From a virus (Duplodnaviria; Caudoviricetes): 60,237 nt of DNA. How positions within the stretch are numbered: the stretch's first letter is position 1; the number at the start of each line of letters is the position of its first letter. The position numbers and the translations under genes were made by a program. Positions 3,933 to 39,716 of the stretch are shown here, piece after piece. A model generated the notes under the pieces. The model was not told where the DNA came from and made no database searches. It was given only the letters and a program-made list of their open reading frames with translations. The stretch covers positions 1-60,237 of the IMG/VR virus record IMGVR_UViG_3300032048_000003; one strand, 5' to 3'.

Positions 3933-4668
3933 AGGGTTTAGTTCGGGGTTCGGCGATTTAATTAATTATATATCATATGAATATATAAATGTCAAAGAAC
4001 CCACAACAATTAATTGGCATTTACAACCCCGAACACACAGACAGATAAAAAGAGTATTAAAATTTTTTAAACCAAATGAGTTGGTTACTCATAAGTTTTT
4101 ACCTCACTCTATTAAAGATGAAGAACCACATGGTTCACATCCTCATGATTATTGGCCTGCGAAAGAATTACATCAACCAGGTGATTATGTGGCTATATGG
4201 TTATATCTATCTCATGTAGGAAAATCGCTTCATCATCAAGATAAAGTTGTAAAGAAGGTTCATTTAGAAATGTTATTAAAGAGCCTTAAAAGAAATGGAT
4301 ATAAAGTAGTTATCATTCCCAGCTTAGGAAATAAGAATCGCAGTGATACATTATATAATATTAATTATGATTTTGATCAGTATGGATATTGTATAACTAG
4401 TATATTAAAGAATTGCAAATTTAGTATTTGTTCAGAAGGGGGAATTGCCCATTTATCAAGATTAATGAGAGTTCCAACTCTGGTTTATTTTAATCAAACA
4501 ATGCCTTGGAAGGGCCATGAGCATTATGATTTAAGAGAATTTTGGATTACAAAATATAGTAGACCAATTGATACTATTGTTGCTGATGTAGCTCAGACGG
4601 CAGAGCAGCTGATTTGTAATCAGCAGGTCACGGGTTCGATTCCTGTCATCAGCTCCAAAGAAAAATGA
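3904..4668 (+). CDS. glycosyltransferase family 9-like protein
   Basis: CSEGGIAHLSRLMRVPTLVYF resembles the GT9 D(S/T)GxxHLAxAxxxP motif; C-terminus runs through tRNA-Thr. Confidence 0.5.
   Translation: MIINKYWTNKGFSSGFGDLINYISYEYINVKEPTTINWHLQPRTHRQIKRVLKFFKPNELVTHKFLPHSIKDEEPHGSHPHDYWPAKELHQPGDYVAIWLYLSHVGKSLHHQDKVVKKVHLEMLLKSLKRNGYKVVIIPSLGNKNRSDTLYNINYDFDQYGYCITSILKNCKFSICSEGGIAHLSRLMRVPTLVYFNQTMPWKGHEHYDLREFWITKYSRPIDTIVADVAQTAEQLICNQQVTGSIPVISSKEK
4582..4657 (+). tRNA. tRNA-Thr (TGT)
   Basis: GCTGATG/CATCAGC acceptor, GCTGA-TTTGTAA-TCAGC anticodon arm, GTTCGA, CCA. Confidence 0.93.
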
Positions 4669-7152: not shown

Positions 7153-7425
7153 ATGGATTTTTTTCGGAGCACTATAATGATTATGACAAGACAACGACCC
7201 CATGTGAAAAAGAGCAAGAAGGTTTATAACCGGAAAGCAAAGCACCCAGAACCAAAATTAGATAGGCATTACGTATCAATGATGGTAGAAGAATATCTTG
7301 CAAAGGGTGGAGAGATCACAAAAATAACTGCAGATGGTACTGTTAACCAAAATTCATGGAAAGACCAAGCAAAGAAAAGTTGGAACACGCGACAAAAGAA
7401 AGCCTCGCAGTGTCCGAGCGGCTAG
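7153..7425 (+). CDS. basic hypothetical protein
   Basis: VEEYLAKGGEITK motif seen in small phage proteins; 3' end overlaps tRNA-Cys. Confidence 0.5.
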   Translation: MDFFRSTIMIMTRQRPHVKKSKKVYNRKAKHPEPKLDRHYVSMMVEEYLAKGGEITKITADGTVNQNSWKDQAKKSWNTRQKKASQCPSG

Positions 7426-7477
7426 GAGATGGTTTGCAAAACCATATACATCGGTTCAAATCCGATCTGCGAGTCCA
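7404..7477 (+). tRNA. tRNA-Cys (GCA)
   Basis: CTCGCAG/CTGCGAG acceptor, ATGGT-TTGCAAA-ACCAT anticodon arm, U73, CCA. Confidence 0.92.
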
Positions 7478-8661: not shown

Positions 8662-8745
8662 GGGGAGGCTGTGCATTGGTGAGCTCAACAGACTGTAAAT
8701 CTGCCGCCTGAGGCTGTGATGGTTCGACTCCATCTCTCCCCACCA
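8662..8745 (+). tRNA. tRNA-Tyr (GTA)
   Basis: CAGA-CTGTAAA-TCTG anticodon arm, long variable arm GCC-TGA-GGC, CCA. Confidence 0.92.
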
Positions 8746-8748
8746 CAT

Positions 8749-8824
8749 AGGCGATTAGCTCAGACGGGAGAGCAGGTGTTTTACAAGCATCAGGTCACTG
8801 GTTCGATCCCAGTATCGCCTACCA
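8749..8824 (+). tRNA. tRNA-Val (TAC)
   Basis: AGGCGAT/ATCGCCT acceptor, GGTGT-TTTACAA-GCATC anticodon arm, CCA. Confidence 0.9.
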
Positions 8825-13908: not shown

Positions 13909-15105
13909 ATGTACACACAAGACGATGTTAAAAGGTTAAGTGGTTCAATCCAAATCGAATATACCTTTGCGAAATTAGGTGCAGAAAAATTACGCAAAAA
14001 GTTAGATGAAAAACCATACGTTAGTGCTTTAGGAGCGTTAACAGGTAATCAAGCTATGCAACAAGCAAAAGCTGGGTTGGATTCAATTTATCTTTCGGGA
14101 TGGCAAGTTGCAGGAGACGCAAACGATAGTCTACAAATGTACCCCGATCAATCACTTTATGCAGTTGGAAGTGTACCTACCATAGTTAAGCGTATTAACA
14201 ATACGTTTCAACGTGCAGATCAAATTCAAACAATGGAAGGTGAAGGCGATGTAGATTATTTTCTTCCAATTGTTGCGGATGCTGAATCCGGATTTGGTGG
14301 TGTCCTCAATACTCACGAATTAGTAAAACATTTAATTGAAGCAGGTGCCGCAGGGATACATTTAGAAGATCAATTATCTTCAGCTAAGAAGTGTGGTCAT
14401 ATGGGAGGAAAGGTTTTAGTTCCTACTCAAGAAATGGTAAATAAATTAATTGCTTCAAAATTAGCAGCCGATATAATGGGCGTTCCAACTGTAATTATTG
14501 CAAGAACAGATGCTCTATCAGGTGCGTTATTACAATCAGATTCTGATGCTCATGATAATAGATTCATAACAGGTGAACGTACCGATGAAGGTTTCTTTAG
14601 AGTGACTGCAGGAATGGATCAAGCGGTTTCTCGAGGACTTGCTTATGCTCCATATTGTGATTTAATTTGGATGGAAACATCAGTACCAGATATAGGGGAA
14701 TGTAAGGAGTTCATACAAGAAATACGAAAAGAATACCCAGATAAAGTATTTGCATATAATTGTTCTCCATCATTTAATTGGAAAGCAAAATTAAGTGATA
14801 AAGAAATATCTAGTTTTAAAGATGAACTTGGAGATATGGGAGTAAAATATCAATTTATAACTCTTGCTGGATTTCATTCCTTGAACTATAGTATGTTTGA
14901 ATTGTCTGAAAATTATAGAGATCGTGGAATGACAGGATTTGTTGAGCTTCAAGAAAAAGAATTTGCAGCTCAAGTTAGAGGATTTACTGCTGTCAAACAT
15001 CAACGCGAAGTTGGTGCTGGATATTTTGATCAAATCGGACAAGTATGTACTGGAAGTACAGATCTTAGCGCAATAGAAGGATCGACAGAAAAAGAACAGT
15101 TCTAA
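13909..15105 (+). CDS. aceA: isocitrate lyase
   Basis: [21 protein letters not shown], catalytic [29 protein letters not shown]. Confidence 0.97.
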
Positions 15106-15824: not shown

Positions 15825-16497
15825 TTCATATTGTGATCCTCTCAATGGATTTGATGGAGGGATATCATCAGAAAAAAGATGGTTCAATCTTTTAGACGAG
15901 CCTTCATTTGTTTTTGGTTTAGCGGGTTCTAGTATTGATTGGTCTTTAGATGTATTTCTCAAAGGTCATAATTATAGAGAAGGCAAAGTAATTTATATCG
16001 AATCTATTCCAAGAAGATTTCATTTTGAGTTCTTACAATATCCTGGACATGCCGGCGCGGTTGTGTTTGATAATATGAAGATGTGGGAAAATGATGAGTG
16101 GCTTTCAAATCCTAGGATGAAATATCTTTCCCGTCATAAAAAATTTATAGGATATTTCCATGAAAATTATAAGGACTATCACAAAGCAACAAAGGCTAGA
16201 TGTACATTAAAGGCTTTATCAGAACAATATGAAAAGGTTATATATTTTGCTACTTCACATAATAGAAATTTATATAGTTCTGTAAATATAAAAAATACAG
16301 AAAAATTTATTATGCCTGACATAAGATTAATGGATATATCACGAGCAGAGATAAAGAGCGATTATGATCCTTCATTTAGAGATAAGAGATCAAATCATTT
16401 TACTGAATCTAATCATAAAAATTTAGCAAGATATATTAAAAGAATATTTAATAATGAATCTATAGAAGATATAGTTTTTGATACGGATATGATATGA
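15805..16497 (+). CDS. SGNH/GDSL-like protein
   Basis: N-terminal FGDSY, GLAGSS, C-terminal NHFTESNH. Confidence 0.55.
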   Translation: MIHIFGDSYCDPLNGFDGGISSEKRWFNLLDEPSFVFGLAGSSIDWSLDVFLKGHNYREGKVIYIESIPRRFHFEFLQYPGHAGAVVFDNMKMWENDEWLSNPRMKYLSRHKKFIGYFHENYKDYHKATKARCTLKALSEQYEKVIYFATSHNRNLYSSVNIKNTEKFIMPDIRLMDISRAEIKSDYDPSFRDKRSNHFTESNHKNLARYIKRIFNNESIEDIVFDTDMI

Positions 16498-17939
16498 TAT
16501 ATTGGGGAATTACTTGTGGGTCACACGATGGCGCGATATCTGTTTATGAAAGTGACACACAGAATATAATATTTGCAACTGATGCGGAAAGATTTTCCAG
16601 AAAAAAGAATGATCCTCAAATACCTCTAAGCTTGTTAGATTATGTACGAGAAGAATATGGGGAACCAAGTAAAGTTTATTTTTATGAAAATCCCTATGTA
16701 AAAGTTTCCCGAAGATGGTATGCTGGCCAAAAACCAATTTGGAAACCGCCTGAGTTACCACATCCATATAATACTAAGTATTATAAGATGAAGTATACTT
16801 CTCATCATAAGTCTCATGCCGCCTATGGATATTATACATCACCATTTACTGAATGCATGGTATTATGTATTGATGCCATAGGAGAATGGGAAACATTAAC
16901 TGTCTGGCATGTTAAAGATCATAAGTTTAAAAAATTATGGAATTGGAAATATCCTAAGTCATTAGGGCTAATGTATTCAGCATTAACTCAATATTCAGGT
17001 TGGAAACCTAATGAGGAAGAATATATTATGATGGGGGCAGCTGCCAGACAAGTATATCCATATGAACTAGCAGTTAAAAGAATAAAACAATGTTGGGATA
17101 AAAAAGCGACTTGGCATAAGGGATGTACTAATATTTCAGAATGGAATATAAAACCTGAAATACATCCAGAAGACGTGCCCACTGCTGCTCAAGCAGTTTA
17201 TGAAGAAAAATTTGAAACAATTTTAAAATCAATTAATAATCATAAATTAAATAATGGTAATATTGTATACGTGGGAGGATGCGCCTTAAATGTTAGTGCC
17301 AATAGATTTCTATCAAATTATTTTTCTAATATCCATATACCATCTAATCCAGGGGACTCTGGTTCTGCTATTGGATGTATTCTCGCAAGAGCTAGACACC
17401 ATATTGATCCTACTCCTTATCTTGGTTATAATATTCAAGGACCATATCCGATCAAAGAAATAATTGAAGAGTTAATGATTAAAAGAGTAGTTGGTGTAGC
17501 AAATGGTAGATGTGAATTTGGTCCGCGCGCTTTAGGTAATAGAACATTATTTGGTGATCCCAGAGATCAAAATATAAAACAAAAAATAAATGAAACAAAA
17601 GGTAGAGAACAATTTAGACCTTTCGCTCCAATGATATTGCCCGAAGATGTGCCGAAATATTTTAATGGTGGTTTTCTTTCACCTTATATGAGTTGTGCAT
17701 TAGAAGCAACAGAAGAATTTAAACAGAAGTATCCTGGTGTTGTTCATATAGATGGTACATCAAGATTACAAGTAGTTGATTCAGAACCACATATATCATT
17801 ATTAAAAGTTTGGAAGGACATAACTAAATGTCCTATATTGTTAAACACTTCTTTAAATGTAAAAGGACAACCAATTGTCAACACAAGAAAAGATGCCAAA
17901 GATTTCTCTAAGAGAACGGGTGTCGTTGTTTATTCTTAA
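16494..17939 (+). CDS. carbamoyltransferase (NodU/CmcH family)
   Basis: HDGA, ERFSRKK, HHKSHA, DAIGE, GGCALN, EFGPRALGNR, RPFAP, NTSLN. Confidence 0.93.
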   Translation: MIYWGITCGSHDGAISVYESDTQNIIFATDAERFSRKKNDPQIPLSLLDYVREEYGEPSKVYFYENPYVKVSRRWYAGQKPIWKPPELPHPYNTKYYKMKYTSHHKSHAAYGYYTSPFTECMVLCIDAIGEWETLTVWHVKDHKFKKLWNWKYPKSLGLMYSALTQYSGWKPNEEEYIMMGAAARQVYPYELAVKRIKQCWDKKATWHKGCTNISEWNIKPEIHPEDVPTAAQAVYEEKFETILKSINNHKLNNGNIVYVGGCALNVSANRFLSNYFSNIHIPSNPGDSGSAIGCILARARHHIDPTPYLGYNIQGPYPIKEIIEELMIKRVVGVANGRCEFGPRALGNRTLFGDPRDQNIKQKINETKGREQFRPFAPMILPEDVPKYFNGGFLSPYMSCALEATEEFKQKYPGVVHIDGTSRLQVVDSEPHISLLKVWKDITKCPILLNTSLNVKGQPIVNTRKDAKDFSKRTGVVVYS

Positions 17940-19396: not shown

Positions 19397-19475
19397 TGGC
19401 TGCGGAGGGTGGAGTCGAACCACCAGTTTTATTCGTCCAACAAACGATTGCGTTTACCGATTTCGCCACTCCGCA
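19397..19475 (-). tRNA. atypical tRNA-Asn (GTT)
   Basis: Reverse complement TGCGGAG-TG-GCGAAATCGGTAAACGC-A-ATCGT-TTGTTGG-ACGAA-TAAAACT-GGTGG-TTCGACT-CCACC-CTCCGCA-G-CCA; U1-A72, G73. Confidence 0.78.
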
Positions 19476-19620
19476 ATTTTTCTAATTCTATTGCTTGTCT
19501 TTGCAATTGATCTAATACTTCATGAACACCAGCACCATTTTTATAAATTGGAATTGCTTTATTACTTTTTACTGAAAATAATTTTCCATCTTTATAAACT
19601 GGAATTATTTCTTCAGTCAT
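19429..19620 (-). CDS. small hypothetical protein running into the tRNA
   Basis: Overlaps the stop of the aaRS-like gene; internal IPVYK/IPIYK repeat. Confidence 0.45.
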   Translation of the reverse strand: MTEEIIPVYKDGKLFSVKSNKAIPIYKNGAGVHEVLDQLQRQAIELEKLRSGEIGKRNRLLDE

Positions 19621-20545
19621 TTTCTAATTTCACCCCATATTTCCGCCGGCCATTATCATCTGCATCTGGATTCAAATTACTATATATCTTCAAGGCACTT
19701 ATAAGTCTGGTAAGGCCTATTCCTCCACCATATCTTGGAAAAAATTTATGACTTAAAAATTCTTTCAATTCTTTTTCTACCCGTTCTTTACCGAATAATT
19801 TAAATAATAATCCAGCATATTCTCCATCGGAAATTGTATGAAACTGGTCTTCCATCTCTTTCGGATCAGCAGACCTTTCAGCGGAACCAATAGTTTCCAT
19901 GCCTCCCATAATTACATCGCATTTGTTAGCAAGTTCTTTTTCTTTTTTCATATTCCAAAAGGGAGAAGTATGGTAAGGAAATTTAGTTATAAATCCAACT
20001 CCGGTAGGATGAGAATCAGATATCATTTGTTCGTGCTCGTGATCTAATTCTTCGCAATTAAATTCTTGACACCACATTTTGTAAGTTTTTTCAGGAAATG
20101 GTCCATTGGTTATGAAATTTCCAAACCCAAATTGTCTGGCAACGAAGTCAGGAACTGTGAAACCTAAGTGCTTAACTAAATCTCTTTCCATATTAAGCAA
20201 GTCCTCAAAGTCACCTGGCGCTTCAAATTCAAACATGGGAAATATAACTTCATGTCTACCTTCAACAGGATTCTGTTCTTGTCTATAAGATGTTGAAACA
20301 CAGAATACACCTTTTAAATCTGGATTATTTAATAGCTCGTATTCCAACCACATTTGGCCGGTTTGAGGTAAAGGCCATATGATATCATTATAATTATATG
20401 TTGCGACAGTTGTAGGATCTTCGCATGCGGCTAATATGGATAATCTGTTTTGGGTATGGACTTCGAGGAAATTTTTATCTAAAAAAAATTGTCTAAGGGA
20501 GGTTGTCACTTTGGTAAAATCATGAGGCGAGATGTTCGTCGTCAT
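19613..20545 (-). CDS. class II aaRS catalytic-domain-only protein (AsnRS/AspRS-like; possibly asparagine synthetase A-type)
   Basis: Motif 1 LRQFF..KNFLEV, motif 2 SYRQE..GRH..FPMFEFE, ETIGSAER, motif 3 GGGIGLTRL; no N-terminal anticodon-binding domain. Confidence 0.85.
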   Translation of the reverse strand: MTTNISPHDFTKVTTSLRQFFLDKNFLEVHTQNRLSILAACEDPTTVATYNYNDIIWPLPQTGQMWLEYELLNNPDLKGVFCVSTSYRQEQNPVEGRHEVIFPMFEFEAPGDFEDLLNMERDLVKHLGFTVPDFVARQFGFGNFITNGPFPEKTYKMWCQEFNCEELDHEHEQMISDSHPTGVGFITKFPYHTSPFWNMKKEKELANKCDVIMGGMETIGSAERSADPKEMEDQFHTISDGEYAGLLFKLFGKERVEKELKEFLSHKFFPRYGGGIGLTRLISALKIYSNLNPDADDNGRRKYGVKLEND

Positions 20546-23990: not shown

Positions 23991-25154
23991 ATGAGACACC
24001 GAGACCAATTAGTAGAAGCCTGGAAGCAAGCACATGGAGATTCAAAAGTGCTTGACAGATCCGCGGTAAATAGAGTAGCCGAGGAAGCAGGGCTTAAAGA
24101 ACCGAATCAGAATTTTCTGAGTAAACTTAGAGTTGGCCGAAATCAATTTTCGATTGCCAATTATGGACAAGCATTACAAATTATGCCACAAGCGAAGTGG
24201 GGCGATCGTTATCGTAAACCAAAAGTCGTTGAAGATGCCCGCGTAGTTCAACACGAGACCGCAATTAAAAAGGTTGACGAAGCAGTTTCATTCGTTCCTT
24301 CTCCTGATCCTAATTATATCAAGGCAGGTTATTTTGCTGAGATTGTTAAGATCATGCAGGCAGGAATGTTTATTCCTACGTTCGTTACAGGTCTTTCCGG
24401 AATGGGTAAAACCAAAGAAGTCTTCGAAGCCGCAGCGAAATCAAAACGCGAATTGATTCGTGTTAATATTACAATTGAAACCGATGAAGATGATTTGCTC
24501 GGTCACTATACCCTTAAAGATGGAGAAACTGTTTGGGAAGACGGACCAGTGATTGTCGCAATGGAAAGAGGCGCGATTCTTCTTCTTGATGAAATTGACC
24601 TTGCGTCAAATAAGATTATGTGTTTGCAGCCAGTACTTGAAGGCGGCGCCATTTTTTTGAAGAAGATTAATCGACTTGTTAATCCAGCACCGGGATTTAA
24701 CATTATCGCAACCGCGAATACTAAAGGTAAGGGATCTGATGATGGCCGGTTCATTGGAACCAATATTCTTAATGAAGCGTTTCTTGATCGTTTCCCAATT
24801 ACATTTGAACAGAATTATCCAAATGCATCAACAGAGAAAAAAATTGTTGCTAAAATCCTTTCAAATTATGAAGTCAAAGATGATGAGTTTGTTGACCATT
24901 TGGTTCAATGGACTGATGTAATTCGTCGAACATTTGACGATGGAGGAATTGATGAAATTATTTCAACTCGTCGTTTAGTAAATATCGTTAACGCTTATAT
25001 GGTTTTCAGAAGCAAGGAAAAAGCGATCGAATATTCGATCAACCGTTTCGATGAAGATACAAAAAATGGATTTATGGACCTCTGGAGTAAAGTAGATCCT
25101 TCTGCCGTGCCTGAAGAAGAAAATCAGGACTTGGAAGACCAAGCATTAGAATAA
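23991..25154 (+). CDS. cobS: CobS-like MoxR AAA+ ATPase
   Basis: GLSGMGKT Walker A, LLLDEID Walker B, ATANTKG, NEAFLDRF. Confidence 0.9.
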   Translation: MRHRDQLVEAWKQAHGDSKVLDRSAVNRVAEEAGLKEPNQNFLSKLRVGRNQFSIANYGQALQIMPQAKWGDRYRKPKVVEDARVVQHETAIKKVDEAVSFVPSPDPNYIKAGYFAEIVKIMQAGMFIPTFVTGLSGMGKTKEVFEAAAKSKRELIRVNITIETDEDDLLGHYTLKDGETVWEDGPVIVAMERGAILLLDEIDLASNKIMCLQPVLEGGAIFLKKINRLVNPAPGFNIIATANTKGKGSDDGRFIGTNILNEAFLDRFPITFEQNYPNASTEKKIVAKILSNYEVKDDEFVDHLVQWTDVIRRTFDDGGIDEIISTRRLVNIVNAYMVFRSKEKAIEYSINRFDEDTKNGFMDLWSKVDPSAVPEEENQDLEDQALE

Positions 25155-30685: not shown

Positions 30686-30847
30686 ATGAAATATCTCATA
30701 CTATGTTATCTCCAAGTTCTCTATACAGTTGGTGCTTTTAGAGATCGAAGATGTTGGATTGATGACCAAATATTATGGTGTTATACTAAGTTAGAAACTT
30801 ACGGACACAAAATAGATAGCCGATATTATTACAAACATACTAAATGA
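30686..30847 (+). CDS. 53-aa hypothetical protein
   Basis: Manually read ORF with GAGG upstream; stop overlaps the gp43 start. Confidence 0.4.
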   Translation: MKYLILCYLQVLYTVGAFRDRRCWIDDQILWCYTKLETYGHKIDSRYYYKHTK

Positions 30848-33348
30848 AATTTTATACTAATGTACATCAGATTGGTGATCATATATTAGTAAGAGGATAT
30901 GAGAATGGTCAGAAGTTTGATGACCGTGTTGAATACCATCCTACTATCTTTATACCTTCCAGAGAAAAATCCAAATATAAAACTATTGATGGAAAACCTT
31001 TGGCTCCTATTAAACCAGGAACAATAAAGGAAACCAGAGACTTTATTCGTAAGTATGACGGAGTTGAAAACTTTCAAATACACGGAATGAATGCTTATAG
31101 GTATAGTTGGATATATGATAACTTTCCGAAGGATAAGGGAATCGATTATGATTTTTCCTTATTAACAATTGCAACTATTGATATCGAAGTCGGCTCCGCA
31201 CATGGATTTCCTGATCCTATATCTGCGATTGAAGAAGTACAAGCGATTACCATTGGGACTGGTGGAAAATATTCTGTTTTTGGTTGTGGTGAGTTTAATA
31301 GTAATGAGGAGAATGTAGAATATTTTCAATGTTCAGATGAAAATCATTTAATTCAAGAATTTATTTCATTTTGGGAAAAACTAGCACCAGATATTATTAC
31401 AGGTTGGAATATACAAGGATTTGATATTCCTTATTTGTATAATAGAATAGTTAGATTATATAGTGTTAAAGAAGCACGCAGGTTATCGCCATGGAACAGA
31501 ATTCATGAACGGGCTACCAATTTTCGTGGAAAGGAAGTTATCTTTCATGATCTCATCGGAATTGCTGTTATCGATTATATTGATGTTTATAGAAGGAATT
31601 CTCCTCCAGCAGAAAGTTATAGGTTAGATTATATTGCTTCAATTGAATTAGGAGAAAGAAAATTATCGTTTGAAGAGTATGGTAATCTTTTTACATTATA
31701 CAAAGAAAATTTCCAAAAGTTTATTGAATATAATATTAAAGACGTACAATTAGTTGAGAGATTAGAAGAAAAGAAAAAGTTAATTGAAATGGTAGTTGCT
31801 CTCGCATATGAAGCAAAAGTAAATTATCAAGACACATTTGGAATGGTTATGATGTGGGAAGTGATCCTCGCAAATGACTTAATGAATAGAAACATTGTAG
31901 TCCCACCAAAGAGAGATAATACAAAAAATAAAGCATATACTGGCGCGTATGTAAAAGAAGTGCAAACCGGTATGCATAAATGGGTTGTCAGCTTTGATTT
32001 AAATAGCCTATATCCTCATTTAATTATGCAATACAATGTAAGTCCTGAAACTATTTTAACAGGAGTTACACAACAATGTGGTGTAGAAAATTTATTGGAA
32101 AAGAGAATTGATCTAAGTAATTTCTATGAAAAAGATATTATTATCGCTGCTAGTGGTCAAGCTTTCAAAAAAGATGAACAAGGATTCTTACCAAGATTGA
32201 TGCAAGAGAAATATAATAATCGAGTCATTTTTAAAAAGAAGGAAATTGCAGCTAAGAAAAAATTAGAAAAAGAAAAAGATCCGATTGAGATAGAAAAATT
32301 AAAAAAAGAAGCAGATTCATTTGGCAATAAACAAACTGCTATGAAATTAATGCTTAATAGTGTTTATGGCGCTTTTGGTAACCCTTATTTTAGATTCTAT
32401 GATTTAAGAATTTCAGAAGCTATTACATTAGGGGGTCAGCTCAGTATCAGATGGGCTGAAACGACAGTCAATAATTATCTCAATCAAATATTGGAAACAA
32501 AGGAGGTTGATTATGTATTGGCATCAGACACTGACTCCCTCTATATTACTTTAGATGATCTAGTTTCAAAAGTATTTCCTGAAGATCCAGAAACAACAAA
32601 AGTTATTGATTTCTTAGATAAAGTATGTGAAGATAAAATAACAAAGATAATTGATTCAGGATATGATGATTTAGCTAAGTATATGAATTGTTATGATCAG
32701 AAGATGTTTATGAAAAGAGAATGTCTTGCTGACAAGGGTATTTGGACAGGAAAGAAACATTATATTCTTAATGTCCATGATAATGAAGGTGTTAGATATG
32801 CAAATCCCCGAATTAAGGTTATGGGGATTGAATCTGTTAAATCATCAACTCCTACATCTTGTAGAGATAAATTAAAAAAGTCTTTTGACATTATTATTAA
32901 TCAAGATGAAGAAGCTATACAAAAATTCATTGCAGATTTTAGAGTGCAGTTTGAAAAGGAACCTATTGAGAACATCGCTTTTCCTAGATCTGTTAAAGGA
33001 ATTGAAAAGTATAATGGTGGAGTAGATTTATATGCTAAAGGAACACCTGTACATGTAAAAGCAACACGCTTATATAATCATTTTTTGAAACAGAAGAATT
33101 TACAAAATAAGTATCCTGTTATTCAGGAAGGTGAAAAAATTAAGTTTGTTTATTTAAAACAACCTAATCCTATTAGGGATGGGGTCATAGCCATGATGGA
33201 AGGCTTGCCTGAAGAGTTCGGACTGCATGCTTATATTGATTATGAGAAGCAATTTGAGAAATCTTTTGGAGGTCCTTTAAATGAAATTTTAAAGGTAATT
33301 GGATGGTCCCCTGAAAAAAGAAGTACATTAGAAGCGTTTTTTATTTGA
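30844..33348 (+). CDS. gp43: family B DNA polymerase gp43
   Basis: DIE exonuclease, FDLNSLYPH, KLMLNSVYG, SDTDS, KKHY. Confidence 0.97.
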   Translation: MKFYTNVHQIGDHILVRGYENGQKFDDRVEYHPTIFIPSREKSKYKTIDGKPLAPIKPGTIKETRDFIRKYDGVENFQIHGMNAYRYSWIYDNFPKDKGIDYDFSLLTIATIDIEVGSAHGFPDPISAIEEVQAITIGTGGKYSVFGCGEFNSNEENVEYFQCSDENHLIQEFISFWEKLAPDIITGWNIQGFDIPYLYNRIVRLYSVKEARRLSPWNRIHERATNFRGKEVIFHDLIGIAVIDYIDVYRRNSPPAESYRLDYIASIELGERKLSFEEYGNLFTLYKENFQKFIEYNIKDVQLVERLEEKKKLIEMVVALAYEAKVNYQDTFGMVMMWEVILANDLMNRNIVVPPKRDNTKNKAYTGAYVKEVQTGMHKWVVSFDLNSLYPHLIMQYNVSPETILTGVTQQCGVENLLEKRIDLSNFYEKDIIIAASGQAFKKDEQGFLPRLMQEKYNNRVIFKKKEIAAKKKLEKEKDPIEIEKLKKEADSFGNKQTAMKLMLNSVYGAFGNPYFRFYDLRISEAITLGGQLSIRWAETTVNNYLNQILETKEVDYVLASDTDSLYITLDDLVSKVFPEDPETTKVIDFLDKVCEDKITKIIDSGYDDLAKYMNCYDQKMFMKRECLADKGIWTGKKHYILNVHDNEGVRYANPRIKVMGIESVKSSTPTSCRDKLKKSFDIIINQDEEAIQKFIADFRVQFEKEPIENIAFPRSVKGIEKYNGGVDLYAKGTPVHVKATRLYNHFLKQKNLQNKYPVIQEGEKIKFVYLKQPNPIRDGVIAMMEGLPEEFGLHAYIDYEKQFEKSFGGPLNEILKVIGWSPEKRSTLEAFFI

Positions 33349-33372
33349 TAAATATAGTATGGAGATTTTGTT

Positions 33373-33855
33373 ATGAATAAATTATGGTACACTTGGCAAG
33401 AAATGTGTTTAGATGTAAATCAACTTTGTAGAGAGATTACATTAGACCATTTTGAACCAGACGTGATCGTGGGTTTAAGCAGAGGAGGTCTAACGCCCGG
33501 CGTTATGATGTCTCATTGGTTAAAGAAGCCTTTTAAGCCCGTGAAAAGCTCTCTCAGAGACTTTCCAGAATGGGAAGAATATCTTCCTAGAAAGACTGAT
33601 GAAAGAGTTCTAATAGTAGATGACATATGTGATAGTGGTGAAACGTTTGAACGTATATCATCTTTTATTAAGGGCCCAAGAAAGGATCAGCCCTTAGAAA
33701 TCAGTTGTGATGTAAAGTTTGCATCCCTCTGGTGGAATAACGAGGTCAATTTTGAACCTCATTATTACGTAAGGGAGGTCGCAAAGGACACTGAGAATCT
33801 ATGGATACATTTTCCGTGGGAATCATGGTGGTCAGCACCTCTGACATTTAATTAA
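33373..33855 (+). CDS. type I phosphoribosyltransferase (Gpt/Hpt-like)
   Basis: GLSRGG, LIVDDICDSGET, WIHFPWE. Confidence 0.88.
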   Translation: MNKLWYTWQEMCLDVNQLCREITLDHFEPDVIVGLSRGGLTPGVMMSHWLKKPFKPVKSSLRDFPEWEEYLPRKTDERVLIVDDICDSGETFERISSFIKGPRKDQPLEISCDVKFASLWWNNEVNFEPHYYVREVAKDTENLWIHFPWESWWSAPLTFN

Positions 33856-33874
33856 CAATTTAATAGGAAAATTC

Positions 33875-34096
33875 ATGTTAGATAAAGCACTCGGTTGGAT
33901 TAGAGGTATAACCGAACTAGGTCTTGCAATAATTGCCCTTGGAGTTGTTCTTCAGATAATTTTTGGTGCAGCAGTGCCGTTTCTCGGAATGGATATCGTG
34001 GGTTCAGTTGTGTCACTCGTAAAACAATTAGGAGCCGAAGGTTTAATTGGCTTAGTTGCAATATGGGTGCTCTGGGGAATATACGAAAAGAAGTAA
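33875..34096 (+). CDS. small membrane protein
   Basis: Two hydrophobic helices. Confidence 0.65.
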   Translation: MLDKALGWIRGITELGLAIIALGVVLQIIFGAAVPFLGMDIVGSVVSLVKQLGAEGLIGLVAIWVLWGIYEKK

Positions 34097-34110
34097 GACA
34101 ATAAAAAAAT

Positions 34111-34135
34111 AAAAGGCTCTTTCGGGAGCCTTTTT
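34111..34135 (+). terminator. intrinsic terminator (bidirectional-type)
   Basis: AAAAGGCTC-TTTCGG-GAGCCTTTTT. Confidence 0.85.
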
Positions 34136-34218
34136 ATACGCGAGAGCGGTGAAGGGGTTGGAAGACCCGTTAATAATGAGCGAGAGAAATTAACAAACAC
34201 TTTTCTTGGAAGGAGAAA

Positions 34219-35310
34219 ATGAAAAAATTAATTTCAATTTTTATAATTTTGGTTGCAGTCGCAACCTTATTTGGTATTACGGCAGTTGGTAAGAAATTGC
34301 CTTCAGTTGGTTATGTTCTAGTGGGACCAAAAAACGATGGCGGATGGTCAATGAGACATTATCATGGATTCATGTCATTAAAAAAACATGGTTATAACGT
34401 AGCTGGTGTCGAAATGGTGCCAGAATCAGAATCAACAAAAGTATTTCGTAAACTTGCCAGAAAACATGATATTGTATTTGCTACCTCATTCGGTTATATG
34501 GATGGAATGGTGAAGGCTGCAGAAAAAGCACCAGATACAATTTTCATGCATGCCACGGGTTACAAGGGCAATGATACAAATATGGACAACTACGTTTGTC
34601 ACTCATTTCAAGCACGATACCTAACAGGGATTGCAGCTGGAATGTTGACAAAGACAAATAAAATTGGTGTAGTGGGTTCACATCCAATACCTGAAATCAT
34701 TCGTAATATTAATGCACTTACACTTGGTGCACAAACAGTAAATCCTGATATTGAAGTTTCTATAGTATGGATAAATTCTTGGTTTGATCCACCTAAAGAT
34801 ATGGATGCGGCCAAGGCTCTTCTTGATGCAGGAAATGATATACTCTATACAACAACCGATTCACCTAGTGTAGTTGCTCTTGCTCAACAAGCATGGAAAA
34901 CTAATGGTAAAGAAGTTTGGAGTATGGGTAATGATGCACCTATGGGAAGTAACGGCCCAGACCGATACATCACAGGAATGATGTTCAACTGGAATGTTCT
35001 TTACAAAACAATTGTTGATCAACTTGCAGCTGGAAAACTCAAAATGAACCAGAGATGGAATTGGGGCTTACAAGAAAATTGTGTAGGTCTATCGCCATGG
35101 GGTAAGAATGTTCCGGGTGAAGTTGTTAATAAAGTTGAAACTGTCAAGATGCAATGGATTCAAGATGATCTGGATACATACTTTCCTTTTGATCAAGGAA
35201 TCACAAAAGCTGATGGAAGCACAGTTGGTAAAGGTGAAATTGCTAGACCTCAAATAGAAACTATGCAATATTTTGTTAAAGGGGTTGTTTCCCGATTTCC
35301 CTCAAAATAA
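34219..35310 (+). CDS. BMP-family (purine nucleoside) solute-binding protein
   Basis: Signal peptide; VGPKNDGGW, ATSFGY, HATGYK, RYLTGIAAG, SWFDP. Confidence 0.9.
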   Translation: MKKLISIFIILVAVATLFGITAVGKKLPSVGYVLVGPKNDGGWSMRHYHGFMSLKKHGYNVAGVEMVPESESTKVFRKLARKHDIVFATSFGYMDGMVKAAEKAPDTIFMHATGYKGNDTNMDNYVCHSFQARYLTGIAAGMLTKTNKIGVVGSHPIPEIIRNINALTLGAQTVNPDIEVSIVWINSWFDPPKDMDAAKALLDAGNDILYTTTDSPSVVALAQQAWKTNGKEVWSMGNDAPMGSNGPDRYITGMMFNWNVLYKTIVDQLAAGKLKMNQRWNWGLQENCVGLSPWGKNVPGEVVNKVETVKMQWIQDDLDTYFPFDQGITKADGSTVGKGEIARPQIETMQYFVKGVVSRFPSK

Positions 35311-35327
35311 TATAATGAAAGGTATAT

Positions 35328-36461
35328 ATGGAAGGCTTATTTGAAAGCATTCTGACCGCAATAGCGGTTGTTATTAATGGCATACCACAGGGAATTTTAG
35401 CGTTAAGTTTTGGCTTCGCAGCTTTTCCTACGGCAATAGCATTTGTAATTGGTATTATTGGTTCGGCATTCTTTATGTCTGTCGCAACTATATCCTTTCA
35501 AGCAGAAACAATCACGTTAGCTGGTACTCTAGGTAATAATATAAAAGAAAGACTTTCTCTTATATTTTGGGGTGCCACCCTACTGTTGATTCCCTCTTTG
35601 CTTGGAATGAATGAAGCGTTAGTTAATTTTATTGGTCCACTAGTTGTCACATCAATGATGGCTGGAGTGGGTATTATGTTAGCGAATGTTTCTGTAGATT
35701 TGTTTAAGTCAGAAAAATGGACAGGAGGAGTATCTTTAATTAGTGCTTTACTTGCTTGGTTTTGGACCAAAGACTTAGCACAAACAATTATATGGTCCGT
35801 AAGTTTATCCACACTTTTTTATGTTGCATTAAAGTTTAATGCTGAATTGCGTGAAAAGTTAGGTGTCGTACTAGAAGAAATTGTAGTAGACAAATCACGC
35901 GAAAAGTTTACAACGGGCAACATTGAGTGGAAGTTTTGGACTAATAGAAACATTGTTATTGGTGCTTTATCATTAGCATGTTTAAACATTGGCGCCAATA
36001 TTTCATTTGGTAAAATTACTGGAAGTATTGCAGGGACTAATACAAATATAGATCATCTTGCAATTTATTCTAGTCTTGCAGATATGGGATCAGCATTCTT
36101 TGGTGGTGGCCCAGTTGAAGCGATAATTTCTGGAACCGCGGCCGCACCTATGCCAATAGTTGCATCTTGTATTATGATGGGAATTATGGCAGTCATTCTA
36201 TTAAGCAAAGCATTGCCTTTGATCGGGCAGTATGTACATAGAGCATCTATTGCAGGTTTTCTTTTTGTATTAGGTGTATTTGTTACCTTTGCTACAAATA
36301 TGGCTGGTGCTATTAGCATTGGTGGAACTTTTGCAGGACCATATGGATTTGGACCAGCAGGAATGGTAATTGGTTCCGCAGCATTTGTAACTGCAAAATT
36401 TAATCCTTTTTATGGTTTGCTTGCAGGATTTGCTACAAGCCTAATCATGATGGGAGCTTAA
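35328..36461 (+). CDS. NCS2/xanthine-uracil permease-like transporter
   Basis: About 10-12 TM helices; SFQAE, FGGGPVEAIIS. Confidence 0.7.
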   Translation: MEGLFESILTAIAVVINGIPQGILALSFGFAAFPTAIAFVIGIIGSAFFMSVATISFQAETITLAGTLGNNIKERLSLIFWGATLLLIPSLLGMNEALVNFIGPLVVTSMMAGVGIMLANVSVDLFKSEKWTGGVSLISALLAWFWTKDLAQTIIWSVSLSTLFYVALKFNAELREKLGVVLEEIVVDKSREKFTTGNIEWKFWTNRNIVIGALSLACLNIGANISFGKITGSIAGTNTNIDHLAIYSSLADMGSAFFGGGPVEAIISGTAAAPMPIVASCIMMGIMAVILLSKALPLIGQYVHRASIAGFLFVLGVFVTFATNMAGAISIGGTFAGPYGFGPAGMVIGSAAFVTAKFNPFYGLLAGFATSLIMMGA

Positions 36462-36462
36462 T

Positions 36463-37038
36463 ATGGCTTGGGGAGAACCATTTACAGATGAGTTCTATGA
36501 ATTAAAAGTCGCAGGACTTATACGTAAGTTGCCCAAAGTCAAAATCAATGACGAGCTCGCTATTGCGAGCTTTGTCATATTGGGTGATACAGAATTAATA
36601 GAAGAATGTGCTGAAGCAATTATTCTTCTGAATGATTTTCCAAAGAAAGATGAAATTGATATTTTTTGTACACCAGAAGCAAAGGGAATACCATTGGTAC
36701 ATACCATTGCAAGAAGGTTAGGAAAAGATTATGTCATTGCAAGAAAATCTATCAAAGGATATATGGATGATCCTATGATAGAAAAAGTTCAATCTATCAC
36801 TACAATCGGCGCACAAACACTTGTCCTTGATAGGAGTGATGTTAAGAAATTAGAAGGAAAGAGAGTAGGTATTATTGATGATGTAGTATCTACAGGTGGT
36901 TCTTTGATAGGGCTTCAGACAATGTTAGAAAAAATTGATTGTTCTATTGTATGTAAAGCGGCAGTCTTATTGGAAGAGGCTGGATATGATAAAGGTGATA
37001 TACTTTATTTAGAAAAACTCCCAATTTTTAAACCATAA
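36463..37038 (+). CDS. adenine/purine phosphoribosyltransferase-like protein
   Basis: EAKGIPL, ARKS, IIDDVVSTGGS. Confidence 0.88.
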   Translation: MAWGEPFTDEFYELKVAGLIRKLPKVKINDELAIASFVILGDTELIEECAEAIILLNDFPKKDEIDIFCTPEAKGIPLVHTIARRLGKDYVIARKSIKGYMDDPMIEKVQSITTIGAQTLVLDRSDVKKLEGKRVGIIDDVVSTGGSLIGLQTMLEKIDCSIVCKAAVLLEEAGYDKGDILYLEKLPIFKP

Positions 37039-37102
37039 GGTTTTGTAGGATTGTACCTTAGAACAACCCTATTACACACAACACACACATAAAGGAGACA
37101 AT

Positions 37103-37333
37103 ATGTCTAATCCATATGAATTAAGATTTAGACTCTTAGAAATGGCATCGAGCTATCTCTATGACCAACAAGAAAGACAACGGGGCTTTGCCGTTGATGC
37201 ATGGGAATTTGCAAAAGAACAAGGTGAAGCAAATATGAAGTTATGGAAAGAACTTCAACCTGAATCCTTTACCATTGAGGATATTAAGACGAAGGCAACT
37301 GAACTCTACGAATTTGTTGAGAAAAAAGCCTAG
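37103..37333 (+). CDS. conserved T4-like small protein
   Basis: NPYELRFRLLEMA ... ATELYEFV; AAGGAG RBS. Confidence 0.7.
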   Translation: MSNPYELRFRLLEMASSYLYDQQERQRGFAVDAWEFAKEQGEANMKLWKELQPESFTIEDIKTKATELYEFVEKKA

Positions 37334-37351
37334 GTAAAATCAGGGAAATAA

Positions 37352-38248
37352 ATGATTCCGATAATTGATTTCAGAAGTAAAACCTGCATAGAAGAAATGC
37401 ATAGAGCATATACTACTTGTGGGTTTGCTATCTTTACCAATGTCTATGATAATTGGTTATCGGAATTTACTGATTGGAAAGAACTTATGGAAGAGTTCTT
37501 TCAACTACCACTAGATACTAAAAAACAATATCAATATAGTGGAGTAAGAGGCTCATTAACGTGTCGCGCTGGCTGGGGTGAAATGGGTTATATTCAGAAT
37601 CGATCAGGTGATTTGAAAGAGTCTTATAACTGGATTGATTCAGCAAGAATGCAAGATCAATACTGGCCGACAGAGATTCCAGAGTTCAAATCATCCGCTC
37701 AACAGATCCTTCAGATCTCTCAACAACTTTCTCATCAGTTTTTCGACAAGTTCGAAAGCATGTTCAAACTCAAAAAAAAATATTTAATAGATAAGCATAT
37801 GAGTGGTTATGTTAATATGAGAATGATTCATTATCCAGCGCATGAGAAGCAAGAGGAACACGAGTCTGGAGGAGAACATACTGATTATGGTTCTATTACT
37901 TTACTCTTTCGTTTCAATGATGTTGGTGGTTTACAAGTACAGGATAGAAAAACAGATGAATGGATTGATGCTCCTGTAGTGGAGAATTCAATAGTATTAA
38001 ACATTGGAGATATGTTTCAAAGATGGTCTAATGATACGTTAAAATCAACTAATCATAGAGTTGTTAATACATTTCATACAAAATCTTGCTATTCAATGCC
38101 TTATTTTGTAGATCCCGGTAGAGATGTATTAATTAAGAATTTCACAGATGAACCAGATAAGCATTTACCAATTTCTTCTGAAGAGTACTTACAGGACATG
38201 CTGCGTTTGAATCATGACAAAAAGAATTGGGAACTACAGATTAATTAA
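37352..38248 (+). CDS. isopenicillin-N-synthase-family 2OG-Fe(II) dioxygenase
   Basis: IPIIDF, GDLKE, HYP, HTDYG.ITLL, NIGDM, STNHRV. Confidence 0.88.
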   Translation: MIPIIDFRSKTCIEEMHRAYTTCGFAIFTNVYDNWLSEFTDWKELMEEFFQLPLDTKKQYQYSGVRGSLTCRAGWGEMGYIQNRSGDLKESYNWIDSARMQDQYWPTEIPEFKSSAQQILQISQQLSHQFFDKFESMFKLKKKYLIDKHMSGYVNMRMIHYPAHEKQEEHESGGEHTDYGSITLLFRFNDVGGLQVQDRKTDEWIDAPVVENSIVLNIGDMFQRWSNDTLKSTNHRVVNTFHTKSCYSMPYFVDPGRDVLIKNFTDEPDKHLPISSEEYLQDMLRLNHDKKNWELQIN

Positions 38249-38297
38249 TGAACACTTAACTAAATACTTATATTAATAATTATAGAAAGAGGATATT

Positions 38298-38603
38298 ATG
38301 TTACCGATATTATTATTCAATGTTATTTCTAGTCTTGTCGTGGACAAAGCAACAGATTTAGCAACAGAGCATGTGGAAAATATGATAAATGATCTACTTC
38401 CAGATGAAGCAAAAAAAGAATTAGATGAAGTAATTGCCAGCGATCCTTCGCATGCATTTGATAATGCCAAAGATGCATTGATGGGAGCAGTTGAAGGTAA
38501 ATTACCTATATCATTAGCAGACGGAACGTTGAAACCAATAGAATTAAATTTTAAAGTTACTTATAATCCTACAGATGGGTCAGTTGATATAGAAAAGTCT
38601 TGA
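38298..38603 (+). CDS. hypothetical protein
   Basis: GAGG RBS; CTAAATA late-like site at 38260. Confidence 0.55.
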   Translation: MLPILLFNVISSLVVDKATDLATEHVENMINDLLPDEAKKELDEVIASDPSHAFDNAKDALMGAVEGKLPISLADGTLKPIELNFKVTYNPTDGSVDIEKS

Positions 38604-38628
38604 TATTTTTTTTAATGTGTAGTATAAT
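38600..38628 (+). promoter_or_regulatory. sigma70-type promoter for uvsX
   Basis: TTGATA-17 bp-TATAAT. Confidence 0.65.
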
Positions 38629-38654
38629 ATATTATGTTTAAGTGAAAGGATTAA

Positions 38655-39716
38655 ATGGGATATTTTGATGAAATGCTGAAAGTGGCGAATAACACTTATG
38701 GCTCTAAAGTAAGTGATGGTGTTGAAGCTGGTGATGTGGAAAGCTTTATTGACACCGGATCATATATATTGAATGGATTATTATCAGGGAGTATCTATGG
38801 AGGATTACCCTCAAATAAAATTACTGCATTTGCAGGTGAAAGTTCCACAGGTAAAACTTTTTTTGTTTTGGGCTGTGTCAGACAGTTTCTCGCAGATAAT
38901 CCTACTGGTGGGGTTATATATTTTGAAAGTGAATCTGCCCTAACCAAAGATATGATTGAAATGCGCGGAATAGATTCTAAGCGCATGGTCATCCTTCCTG
39001 TTGCAACAGTTCAGGAATTCAGAACACAAGCAACTAAAATTTTAGAAAAACATTTAGAAGAACCTGAAAAAGATCGTCCCCCAATGATGATATGTCTTGA
39101 TTCATTAGGTAATCTGTCTACTACTAAAGAGATGGAAGATATCGGTGAAGGTAAAGAGACCAGAGATATGACCAGAGCACAAATGGTTAAAGGTACTTTT
39201 AGGGTTTTAACTTTATTAGGTGGTAAAGCTAAAGTGCCCCTTGTTGTTACTAATCACACATACGATCAAATAGGAACATTATTTCCTCAAAAAATTATGG
39301 GTGGAGGAACTGGCTTACATTATGCCGCATCTAGTATCATATTCCTATCTAAAAAGAAAGAAAAAGATGGTACTGAAGTAATTGGTAATATAGTTCATTG
39401 TAGGACTTATAAATCAAGACTTACAAAAGAACATAAAATGGTAGATGTTCTTCTTACATATAAAGAAGGATTGAATAGATATTATGGTTTAGCAGAGTTA
39501 GCAGAGAAGTATGGAATCTTTAAAAAAGTTTCTACGAGATTAGAAATGCCTGATGGAGAAAAGGTATTTCTAAAAACAGTTTTAAAAAATCCCACAAAAT
39601 ATTTTACAAAAGAAATTCTCGATCAGATTGATAAAGTTGCCGGGAAAGAATTTTTATATGGTGAAATGGGAATAGAAGAAGAATTAACTCTTGAAAATGA
39701 TAGTAGAGAAAGTTAA
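38655..39716 (+). CDS. uvsX: RecA-like recombinase UvsX
   Basis: [29 protein letters not shown]. Confidence 0.95.

Follow-up and report, generated by a model that had tools for sequence, protein, structure and literature searches.

Closest Described Systems and Overview of the Cassette

It is well known that phages may carry auxiliary genes for making nucleotides or for binding phosphate; an integral membrane carrier for a nutrient is, to our knowledge, rare in a phage genome. On the bacterial side, operons of the xpt-pbuX type in Bacillus subtilis associate a purine phosphoribosyltransferase (PRTase) and a purine permease under a guanine riboswitch, and the TRAP and TTT transport systems include a small membrane protein. 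The precedent for a phage-encoded binding protein is the PstS of cyanophages (bioRxiv 10.1101/2021.07.20.453049). We compare here with such systems a locus of the IMG/VR virus record IMGVR_UViG_3300032048_000003, which represents an uncultured marine T4-like phage and was analysed over its full 60,237 bases (hereafter called the window; estimated completeness of 36%). The locus is a cassette of seven open reading frames (ORFs), all intact, tightly spaced and on the + strand, lying between a family-B DNA polymerase gene and a UvsX/RecA-like gene; we refer to these ORFs, in their order, as PRT1, smTM, BMP, PERM, PRT2, sm76 and the 2-oxoglutarate (2OG)-Fe(II) oxygenase.

We consider it likely, from sequence and gene neighbourhood, that these genes form a mosaic auxiliary-metabolic cassette that lets the infected cell take up purine bases, probably from seawater, and turn them into nucleotides destined for phage DNA. 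The scavenging of extracellular purines had already been proposed in a first-pass annotation of this DNA made from the letters alone, and it remains the best reading in view of the subgroup that BMP most resembles (that of AtzT and 3S99), the riboswitch context of PERM-PRT2 in bacteria and the family of PRT2. The same annotation had given the gene order from the polymerase (gp43) to uvsX, and all the ORFs that it listed are present on the + strand where it placed them; the 76-aa ORF sm76 (37103-37333) was missing from its list. Its family calls are backed by Pfam, NCBIfam or phrog matches with the exception of the permease, which matches neither Pfam nor NCBIfam. It had also remarked that no ABC ATPase or ABC permease is present; indeed, no ABC component was detected in the 60-kb window by tblastn (E<=1e-8, at least 50% coverage) with two cellular BMP-type ABC permeases, one ATPase and one permease of a phage ABC system as queries, nor by Pfam searches that covered about 30 of the ORFs of the window. 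These searches, thus, found no cognate ABC permeases or ATPase encoded together with BMP.

The Binding Protein

BMP (34219..35310, + strand) codes for a periplasmic binding protein with an N-terminal signal sequence that matches PF02608 with 154.5 bits for a cutoff of 24.1. Its nearest solved relatives, both aligned over their full length, are PDB 3S99 (197.7 bits, E 2.7e-57) and AtzT (196.1 bits, E 8.3e-57), whereas the nucleoside binders PnrA and TmpC reach only 38-44 bits. According to the AtzT study, this protein co-purified with guanine (KD of 0.11 µM, with 2.5 µM for adenine), has 2-hydroxyatrazine and ammeline among its other ligands, and holds its ligand by an aromatic sandwich together with Ser97, Phe98, Glu165, Asn218 and Asn220; in 3S99, which is from Brucella, adenine was modelled in the structure (PMC6834077). 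Counting positions by hand on the pairwise alignment, we found five of the seven AtzT contacts kept in BMP, where Tyr45 corresponds to W43, Ser97 to S90, Phe98 to F91, Glu165 to E159 and Trp194 to W188. None of these five residues varies among 26 BMP homologues from phages and cells, all of which start with a signal sequence.

Because AtzT and 3S99 far outscore PnrA and TmpC and because five pocket residues are kept, BMP is best read as a predicted periplasmic binder of purine bases and not of nucleosides. The nucleoside binding of the PnrA type that was initially attributed to it is, thus, better replaced by a predicted binding of bases, as in the subgroup that it most resembles.

The Carrier and the Two Phosphoribosyltransferases

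PERM (35328..36461, + strand), which begins 18 nt after BMP, codes for a 377-aa secondary carrier, a predicted purine-base importer. Its AlphaFold (AF2) model, with a pLDDT of 87.9, has 14 helices and two short strands (residues 54-57 and 263-266) located at transmembrane segments TM3 and TM10; the predicted model shows the 7+7 inverted repeat of the UraA/SLC26/SLC4/AzgA fold, with a half-helix and a strand in both TM3 and TM10. The best fold matches, over 344-355 residues, are UraA (Z 28.4), prestin/SLC26 (28.4-27.9) and the plant carrier AZG1 (27.7). When a PERM profile built from 29 sequences was compared with E. coli carriers using hhalign, the adenine and guanine/hypoxanthine carriers AdeQ/AdeP/GhxP/GhxQ were aligned with a probability of 44.8% (E 2.2e-4, 277 collinear columns, 19% identity), and XanP/XanQ/UacT gave a probability of 0.2% and no alignment. 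In sequence, the only link of PERM would, thus, be a weak one with the AzgA-type purine carriers. Membership of NCS2/NAT (PF00860), the family to which the permease was likened at first, was rejected on the sequence level (no Pfam match at E<=10 and the 0.2% against XanP/XanQ/UacT), leaving the shared UraA/SLC26/AzgA fold and the AzgA-type link. Relatives of PERM, which their sources label “NCS2 family permease” or “AGZA family”, are found at 64-71% identity in metagenome-assembled genomes (MAGs) of Synergistota and Spirochaetota and at 47-52% identity in Clostridia, Bacilli and Desulfobacterota.

PRT2 (36463..37038, + strand) begins one base past the PERM stop. It is a purine PRTase of the PRK07322/APRT2 type, placed in the PRK07322 “adenine phosphoribosyltransferase” subfamily by NF005592 (220.4 bits for a cutoff of 143), and it matches over its full length the adenine PRTase structures of Thermus thermophilus (5ZGO, 138.7 bits; 6FSP, 133.6 bits), which upholds its initial description as Apt-like. 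A Thermus adenine PRTase, which may or may not be the enzyme of the PDB entry, acts on adenine, on adenines substituted at position 2 and, to some extent, on guanine (PMC6317416). PRT1 (33373..33855, + strand; phrog_8995) is also a type I PRTase: with 49.1 bits for PRT1 and 47.3 bits for PRT2, both pass PF00156, and both hold an acidic PRPP-binding loop, VLIVDDICDSGET in PRT1 and VGIIDDVVSTGGS in PRT2. We predict a Gpt/Xpt-like enzyme for PRT1, as its best NCBIfam match is the xanthine PRTase NF006613; this match of 35.7 bits stays below the cutoff of 138, so that of the earlier Gpt/Hpt-like assignment, the type I family stands and the finer label lacks a passing profile. Among solved structures, PRT1 matches PDB 1VDM (52 bits) as well as GpT-1 and GpT-2 of S. 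solfataricus.

The association of PERM with PRT2 is very stable. Out of 80 bacterial loci, 79 have a PRT2 homologue directly downstream of PERM and on the same strand (the remaining locus is cut), and the two genes are adjacent in 26/29 IMG/VR loci and in all 12 metagenome loci with enough flanking sequence. Directly upstream of PERM, the purine riboswitch RF00167 of Rfam was detected in 4 of the 14 loci scanned; a covariance model of our own, built from these four loci, then recognised it ahead of PERM in 28 out of 41 loci at 47-52% identity, with a C at position 74 (guanine class) in 26 of the 28 and a U (adenine class) in the other 2. The same model found no riboswitch in four viral loci, nor in the window. 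Taken together, and because operon conservation, the riboswitch, the fold and profile matches and the PRT2 family all point the same way, PERM-PRT2 is predicted to be an operon that imports a purine base and traps it.

Two variants may be mentioned here. The U-type riboswitches stand before PERM in the Clostridium-type loci L098:5878-5952 and L106:5878-5952. In the IMG/VR loci L026-L028 and L030, PERM (65-74% identity) and PRT2 occur without BMP or PRT1, and PRT2 is located upstream of PERM in L026-L028.

Modular Origin of the Cassette

Surveying the neighbourhoods of these genes gave a very different picture for BMP and PERM considered as a pair. No BMP or PRT1 homologue was present within about 6 kb of PERM in any of the 80 bacterial PERM loci, so that the BMP-permease-PRTase trio is absent from this set. 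Conversely, 20 of the 80 metagenome loci ascertained by BMP are cellular (mean GC of 0.40), and none of the 20 has PERM; they have two PF02653 ABC permeases and then BMP (77-83% identity to that of the window), followed in 19 of the 20 by a homologue of the oxygenase (56-60%). One such cellular ABC permease shares 86% identity with a protein listed by NCBI under a SAR324 cluster MAG, the link with SAR324 being, thus, that of one named protein at this identity. A protein-cluster search with the cellular ABC permease gave only generic clusters, one of them half archaeal, and was set aside. In locus L146:4626-10839, the two ABC permeases, BMP and the 2OG oxygenase are followed by an amidase and preceded by multihaem cytochromes c; this locus also has Na/H exchangers.

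Among the non-cellular loci with enough flank, BMP lies beside PERM in 28, both are present but apart in 4, BMP occurs without PERM in 29 and PERM without BMP in 6; these counts of phage-type loci are approximate, as the two locus sets share some contigs, and each BMP-only locus extends 1.5 kb or more downstream. BMP followed by the oxygenase was also found in 12 non-cellular loci. The case of L139 is telling: with a gp43 and a UvsX that are 89% and 93% identical to those of the window, it reads PRT1, smTM, BMP and oxygenase, without PERM. In the window, PERM, PRT2 and sm76, therefore, seem to have been inserted into a BMP-oxygenase block derived from a cell. As judged from gene order and identities, the cassette is a mosaic of independent modules, because BMP and PERM are uncoupled in bacteria as in phages and because BMP and the oxygenase match a cellular, SAR324-like ABC operon. 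The idea that BMP and the permease form an unusual functional pair fares badly against these counts, and the obligate co-occurrence of binding protein and carrier that is typical of TRAP/TTT-like systems was not observed.

Two further kinds of neighbours were seen in related loci. A gene with an IMPDH/GMP-reductase domain, which the window does not have, stands beside PRT1 and BMP in 17/60 non-cellular metagenome loci and in 6/32 IMG/VR loci (for example, L173:5200-6201 and L120:5489-6499), and such a gene fits with purine interconversion. A complete three-gene ABC importer, consisting of an NMT1/THI5-like binding protein, an ABC ATPase and a BPD_transp_1 permease, comes right after the cassette in the phage contigs L010:9729-12216, L011, L012, L188:8100-10517 and L174; it would be unusual for a phage to encode an entire ABC transporter.

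Occurrence in Other Contigs

The order gp43, PRT1, smTM, BMP, PERM, PRT2, oxygenase and UvsX is found again in L002, L004, L007 and L009, which are IMG/VR contigs from four different metagenomes, so that the trio missing from the 80 bacterial PERM loci does occur in other phages with the whole cassette; L001 and L008 keep part of the order from gp43 to uvsX. Searching for sampled words of positions 32800-38800, we found at least 71% of them in 14 DNA runs belonging to 11 studies. One contig from a viral metagenome spans 32859-34329, i.e., from gp43 through PRT1 and smTM into BMP, without a single difference. RNA libraries of three studies yielded contigs with 0-3 differences to the cassette, among them a 1245-nt contig that runs from BMP into PERM and a 1460-nt contig that aligns with 35304-36593 and includes the whole PERM and the start of PRT2; these contigs are compatible with transcription of the cassette without proving it. 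Many independent marine contigs, as well as RNA libraries, contain the cassette, which is, therefore, not a chimera of the assembly.

PERM is 85-98% identical among phage contigs, including those whose polymerase is only 27% identical. In L010-L012, for example, PERM is the most conserved part, with 91% identity for PERM, 71% for BMP and 27% for the polymerase. Such a conservation across divergent phages suggests exchange of PERM among phages together with purifying selection.

The Oxygenase and the Small ORFs

The last gene of the cassette (37352..38248, + strand) codes for a 2OG-Fe(II) oxygenase with the DIOX_N (PF14226) and 2OG-FeII_Oxy (PF03171, 79.9 bits) domains. Its solved relatives are PDB 3OOX, 9OVH and the thymine dioxygenase 5C3P, the Neurospora enzyme being the third entry listed, with 85 bits. 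The iron triad H176/D178/H235 is present and invariant among relatives. The Arg of the RxS motif, which binds 2OG, is found in 47 of 53 relatives and is replaced by Cys in the window (codon near 38087) and by Ser in L006-L009 and L024, which form one sister lineage; all six oxygenases without this Arg share the backbone of the window, with PERM-PRT2 inserted before the oxygenase. On this basis, the copy of the window may be impaired. Because the oxygenase follows BMP in 19 of the 20 cellular loci, a link with the imported substrate is plausible, and this suggests that the enzyme acts on what BMP imports. The proposal that the dioxygenase handles modified bases, thus, keeps some ground, with a thymine dioxygenase among its top three solved relatives and a plausible link to BMP, and loses some for the window copy, which has Cys for Arg.

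Regarding the small ORFs, smTM (33875..34096, + strand) codes for a 73-aa hydrophobic protein with 2-3 hydrophobic stretches, for which profile searches found no family. It is 72-93% conserved in related phage loci and does not always adjoin BMP or PERM. The 123-nt gap between smTM and BMP contains a palindromic, terminator-like hairpin (34111..34134), identified by consensus scan only, with a 9-bp GC-rich stem flanked by runs of A and T; it may be a bidirectional terminator. The promoter scan remained at background, with 20 sites for 22.7 expected. As for sm76 (37103..37333, + strand), an ORF call, it does not separate PRT2 from the oxygenase in the sister contigs, and a contig from a virome run joins 37035 to 37385, skipping sm76, which matches the sister contigs where PRT2 abuts the oxygenase.

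Proposed Mechanism and Alternative Explanations

The uptake of purine bases for phage DNA synthesis could proceed through three modules. With the first, made of PRT1 (with or without smTM) and BMP, the binding protein would be exported to the periplasm, bind adenine and/or guanine-type bases with high affinity and, most likely, hand them to the BMP-type ABC permeases of the host, as cyanophage PstS does with the host PstCA; PRT1 would then use host phosphoribosyl pyrophosphate (PRPP) to turn the base into a nucleoside monophosphate. The second module, PERM and PRT2, would be a bacterial operon of two genes, complete in itself, that was inserted after BMP and before the oxygenase: PERM, presumably proton- or ion-coupled, would import a purine base that PRT2 would trap as a nucleoside monophosphate, adding a carrier that works independently and seems to be missing from the host lineage. 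The third module, the oxygenase, would have arrived with BMP from the cellular ABC operon. The host probably belongs to SAR324-like deep-ocean bacteria. What the data show directly are the gene families, the fold, the conserved operon, its riboswitch context, the modularity and the occurrence in virome DNA and RNA libraries; we infer this host, as well as the ligands, the direction of transport and the use of host ABC permeases.

One has to weigh against this scheme a number of observations. PERM has no Pfam match even at E=10 and no NCBIfam match, and neither phmmer nor profile searches against PDB sequences returned anything meaningful for it; its fold scores tie with those of the SLC26 anion carriers, so that the fold alone picks no family, and its AzgA link goes no higher than the hhalign probability of 44.8%. 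Its closest cellular relatives belong to anaerobe lineages and not to pelagic bacteria, and in the 39 closest bacterial loci (64-71% identity, Synergistota and Spirochaetota), the covariance model found no riboswitch. In the pocket of BMP, Asn218 of AtzT is a Thr and Asn220 an Asp, the latter being also present in the adenine-bound 3S99. The archaeal relatives of PRT1 include both adenine and 6-oxopurine enzymes, so that either specificity is conceivable for it. No ABC ATPase was found within 7 kb of the cellular BMP loci. Finally, DNA carry-over is possible in RNA libraries, and the contigs obtained from them are, therefore, no proof of transcription.

A different way to understand the locus is that BMP and PERM, perhaps with smTM, work as one binding-protein-dependent secondary transporter, analogous to TRAP/TTT with an elevator carrier of the UraA fold. 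The two genes are indeed adjacent and co-directional in the window, as they are in 28 phage-type loci, smTM just upstream recalls the small membrane ORF of TRAP/TTT, and tblastn found no ABC component in the window. Such a transporter would be the first of its kind with a UraA fold if BMP does feed PERM; we nevertheless give it a slim chance, since the partners are so often found apart: none of the 80 bacterial PERM loci has BMP within about 6 kb, none of the 20 cellular BMP loci has PERM, BMP stands without PERM in 29 phage-type loci and PERM without BMP in 6, L139 lacks PERM on the same backbone (gp43 at 89%), smTM and PERM each occur without the other, and the cellular copies of BMP adjoin ABC permeases. 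A complex prediction for PERM with BMP (residues 25-363) scored 0.00 for a mark of 0.32 and was counted neither for nor against. Equally doubtful, in our opinion, is the larger proposition that marine phages install whole foreign uptake systems, with PERM and its trapping enzyme on one side and, on the other, a BMP using either the host ABC permeases or the UraA-fold carrier of the phage.

It is also conceivable, if unlikely, that the BMP-oxygenase part, or even the whole cassette, handles another N-heterocycle (a modified purine, a triazine-like compound or a catabolic substrate oxidised by the 2OG oxygenase), the purpose being nitrogen scavenging or base modification. The oxygenase comes after BMP in 19/20 cellular and 12 non-cellular loci, an amidase comes next in L146, AtzT binds 2-hydroxyatrazine and ammeline in addition to purines (PMC6834077), a thymine dioxygenase is among the best solved relatives of the oxygenase, and two pocket positions of BMP differ from AtzT. 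However, the two PRTases of the cassette point to the formation of nucleotides, as do, for purines, the guanine-class riboswitch context of PERM-PRT2 and the GMP-reductase/IMPDH-domain genes beside the cassette in relatives; moreover, it is the oxygenase of the window that lacks the conserved Arg, the other genes being intact. That the segment be a host-derived assembly chimera, the possibility raised at the outset, or a decaying passenger without a phage role, seems to us extremely improbable. Its GC of 0.36-0.39 is slightly above the window mean of 0.344, BMP and the oxygenase have close cellular homologues, and the oxygenase shows the Arg-to-Cys change; yet, such a view has against it a synteny repeated in contigs of several metagenomes, the 14 DNA runs of 11 studies holding at least 71% of the sampled words, a virome contig that bridges the gp43 junction without differences, ORFs that are all intact and a PERM that is 85-98% conserved over divergent phages. 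Uptake of purine bases and their fixation as nucleotides is the explanation that we retain as the likeliest.

Novelty and Significance

Of the 50,697 phage records deposited, not one contains PERM, and the cassette has no blastn match among deposited phages. These records hold no close relative of BMP, the best one being 32% identical and found in gut fragments; BMP-like (at most 32%) and PRT2-like (at most 50%) sequences come mainly from short unannotated gut fragments, and PRT1-like genes, at about 30% identity, from a few cyanophages and Flavobacterium and Cellulophaga phages. In the literature, we found no description of a phage cassette of BMP, permease and PRTase, keeping in mind that supplementary tables of auxiliary metabolic genes may list such genes; in the pelagimyophage paper, the terms purine, permease and phosphoribosyl are all absent. 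A mention of “adenine phosphoribosyltransferase” in PMC7785012 concerns Pta and is irrelevant to the cassette.

The rarity of a membrane carrier in a phage is compounded here, as it comes with a predicted purine-base binding protein and two predicted trapping enzymes. If our reading is true, infection would alter what the cell takes up from seawater, and dissolved purine bases would be a direct source of phage DNA. It also provides a testable guess for the substrate of a carrier family that is widespread in bacteria, lacks a Pfam model and always stands beside an APRT2-type enzyme.

Other Features of the Window

To the left of the cassette, the gp43-like family-B DNA polymerase (30844..33348, + strand; PF00136, PF03104) is 49% identical to DNA polymerases of cyanomyoviruses; upstream of the cassette, the gp45 clamp and gp44 clamp loader complete a T4-like replication module. 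To the right stands the UvsX/RecA-like recombinase (38655..39716, + strand; PF00154, 51.5 bits). Several other genes of the window are host-like: an isocitrate-lyase-family gene (13909-15105; PF00463, 323 bits), homologues of which lie near the cassette in 19/60 non-cellular metagenome loci and 8/32 IMG/VR loci, a radical SAM protein (1363-2709), a carbamoyltransferase (16494-17939), a class II aaRS-like gene on the minus strand (19613-20545) and a CbbQ/CobS-like AAA ATPase (23991-25154). Six tRNA genes were located at 1146-1216, 4582-4654, 7404-7474, 8662-8742, 8749-8821 and 19400-19475 (the latter on the - strand).

Comparison with Known Systems

With the xpt-pbuX type of operon, the bacterial PERM-PRT2 pairs share the combination of a carrier and a PRTase behind an RF00167 riboswitch. 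They differ from it by a carrier that belongs to a compact family of 367-377 aa without a Pfam model and by a PRTase of the PRK07322/APRT2 type, and the phage copy of the pair differs further by having no riboswitch. The likeness of PRT2 to the Thermus thermophilus adenine PRTase (5ZGO, 6FSP) extends over its full length at 134-139 bits, whereas the riboswitches that precede the bacterial PERM-PRT2 pairs, where present, are mostly of the guanine class; adenine is, thus, only a putative substrate of the phage enzyme. The carrier itself resembles the AzgA-like proteins (AdeP, AdeQ, GhxP, GhxQ and AZG1) by its 14-helix 7+7 fold and by a collinear profile match of 277 columns; PERM is, however, about 70 residues shorter, the match has 19% identity and a probability of 44.8%, and the fold ties with SLC26 and UraA.

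For BMP, the reference proteins are AtzT of Pseudomonas sp. ADP and 3S99, with full-length matches of 196-198 bits and an aromatic sandwich and Ser/Phe/Glu contacts that are kept; unlike them, the BMP of the window is encoded by a phage and has no ABC genes in cis. It has Thr in place of Asn218 of AtzT and, as in 3S99, Asp in place of Asn220. BMP also recalls the cyanophage PstS, as in both cases the phage carries only the binding protein of an ABC importer, close to that of the host (77-83% identity between BMP and its cellular homologues). The docking of BMP on host permeases would be the counterpart of what PstS does, with a predicted purine base in place of phosphate, and the cassette would go further than the cyanophage system by adding trapping enzymes and an independent carrier.

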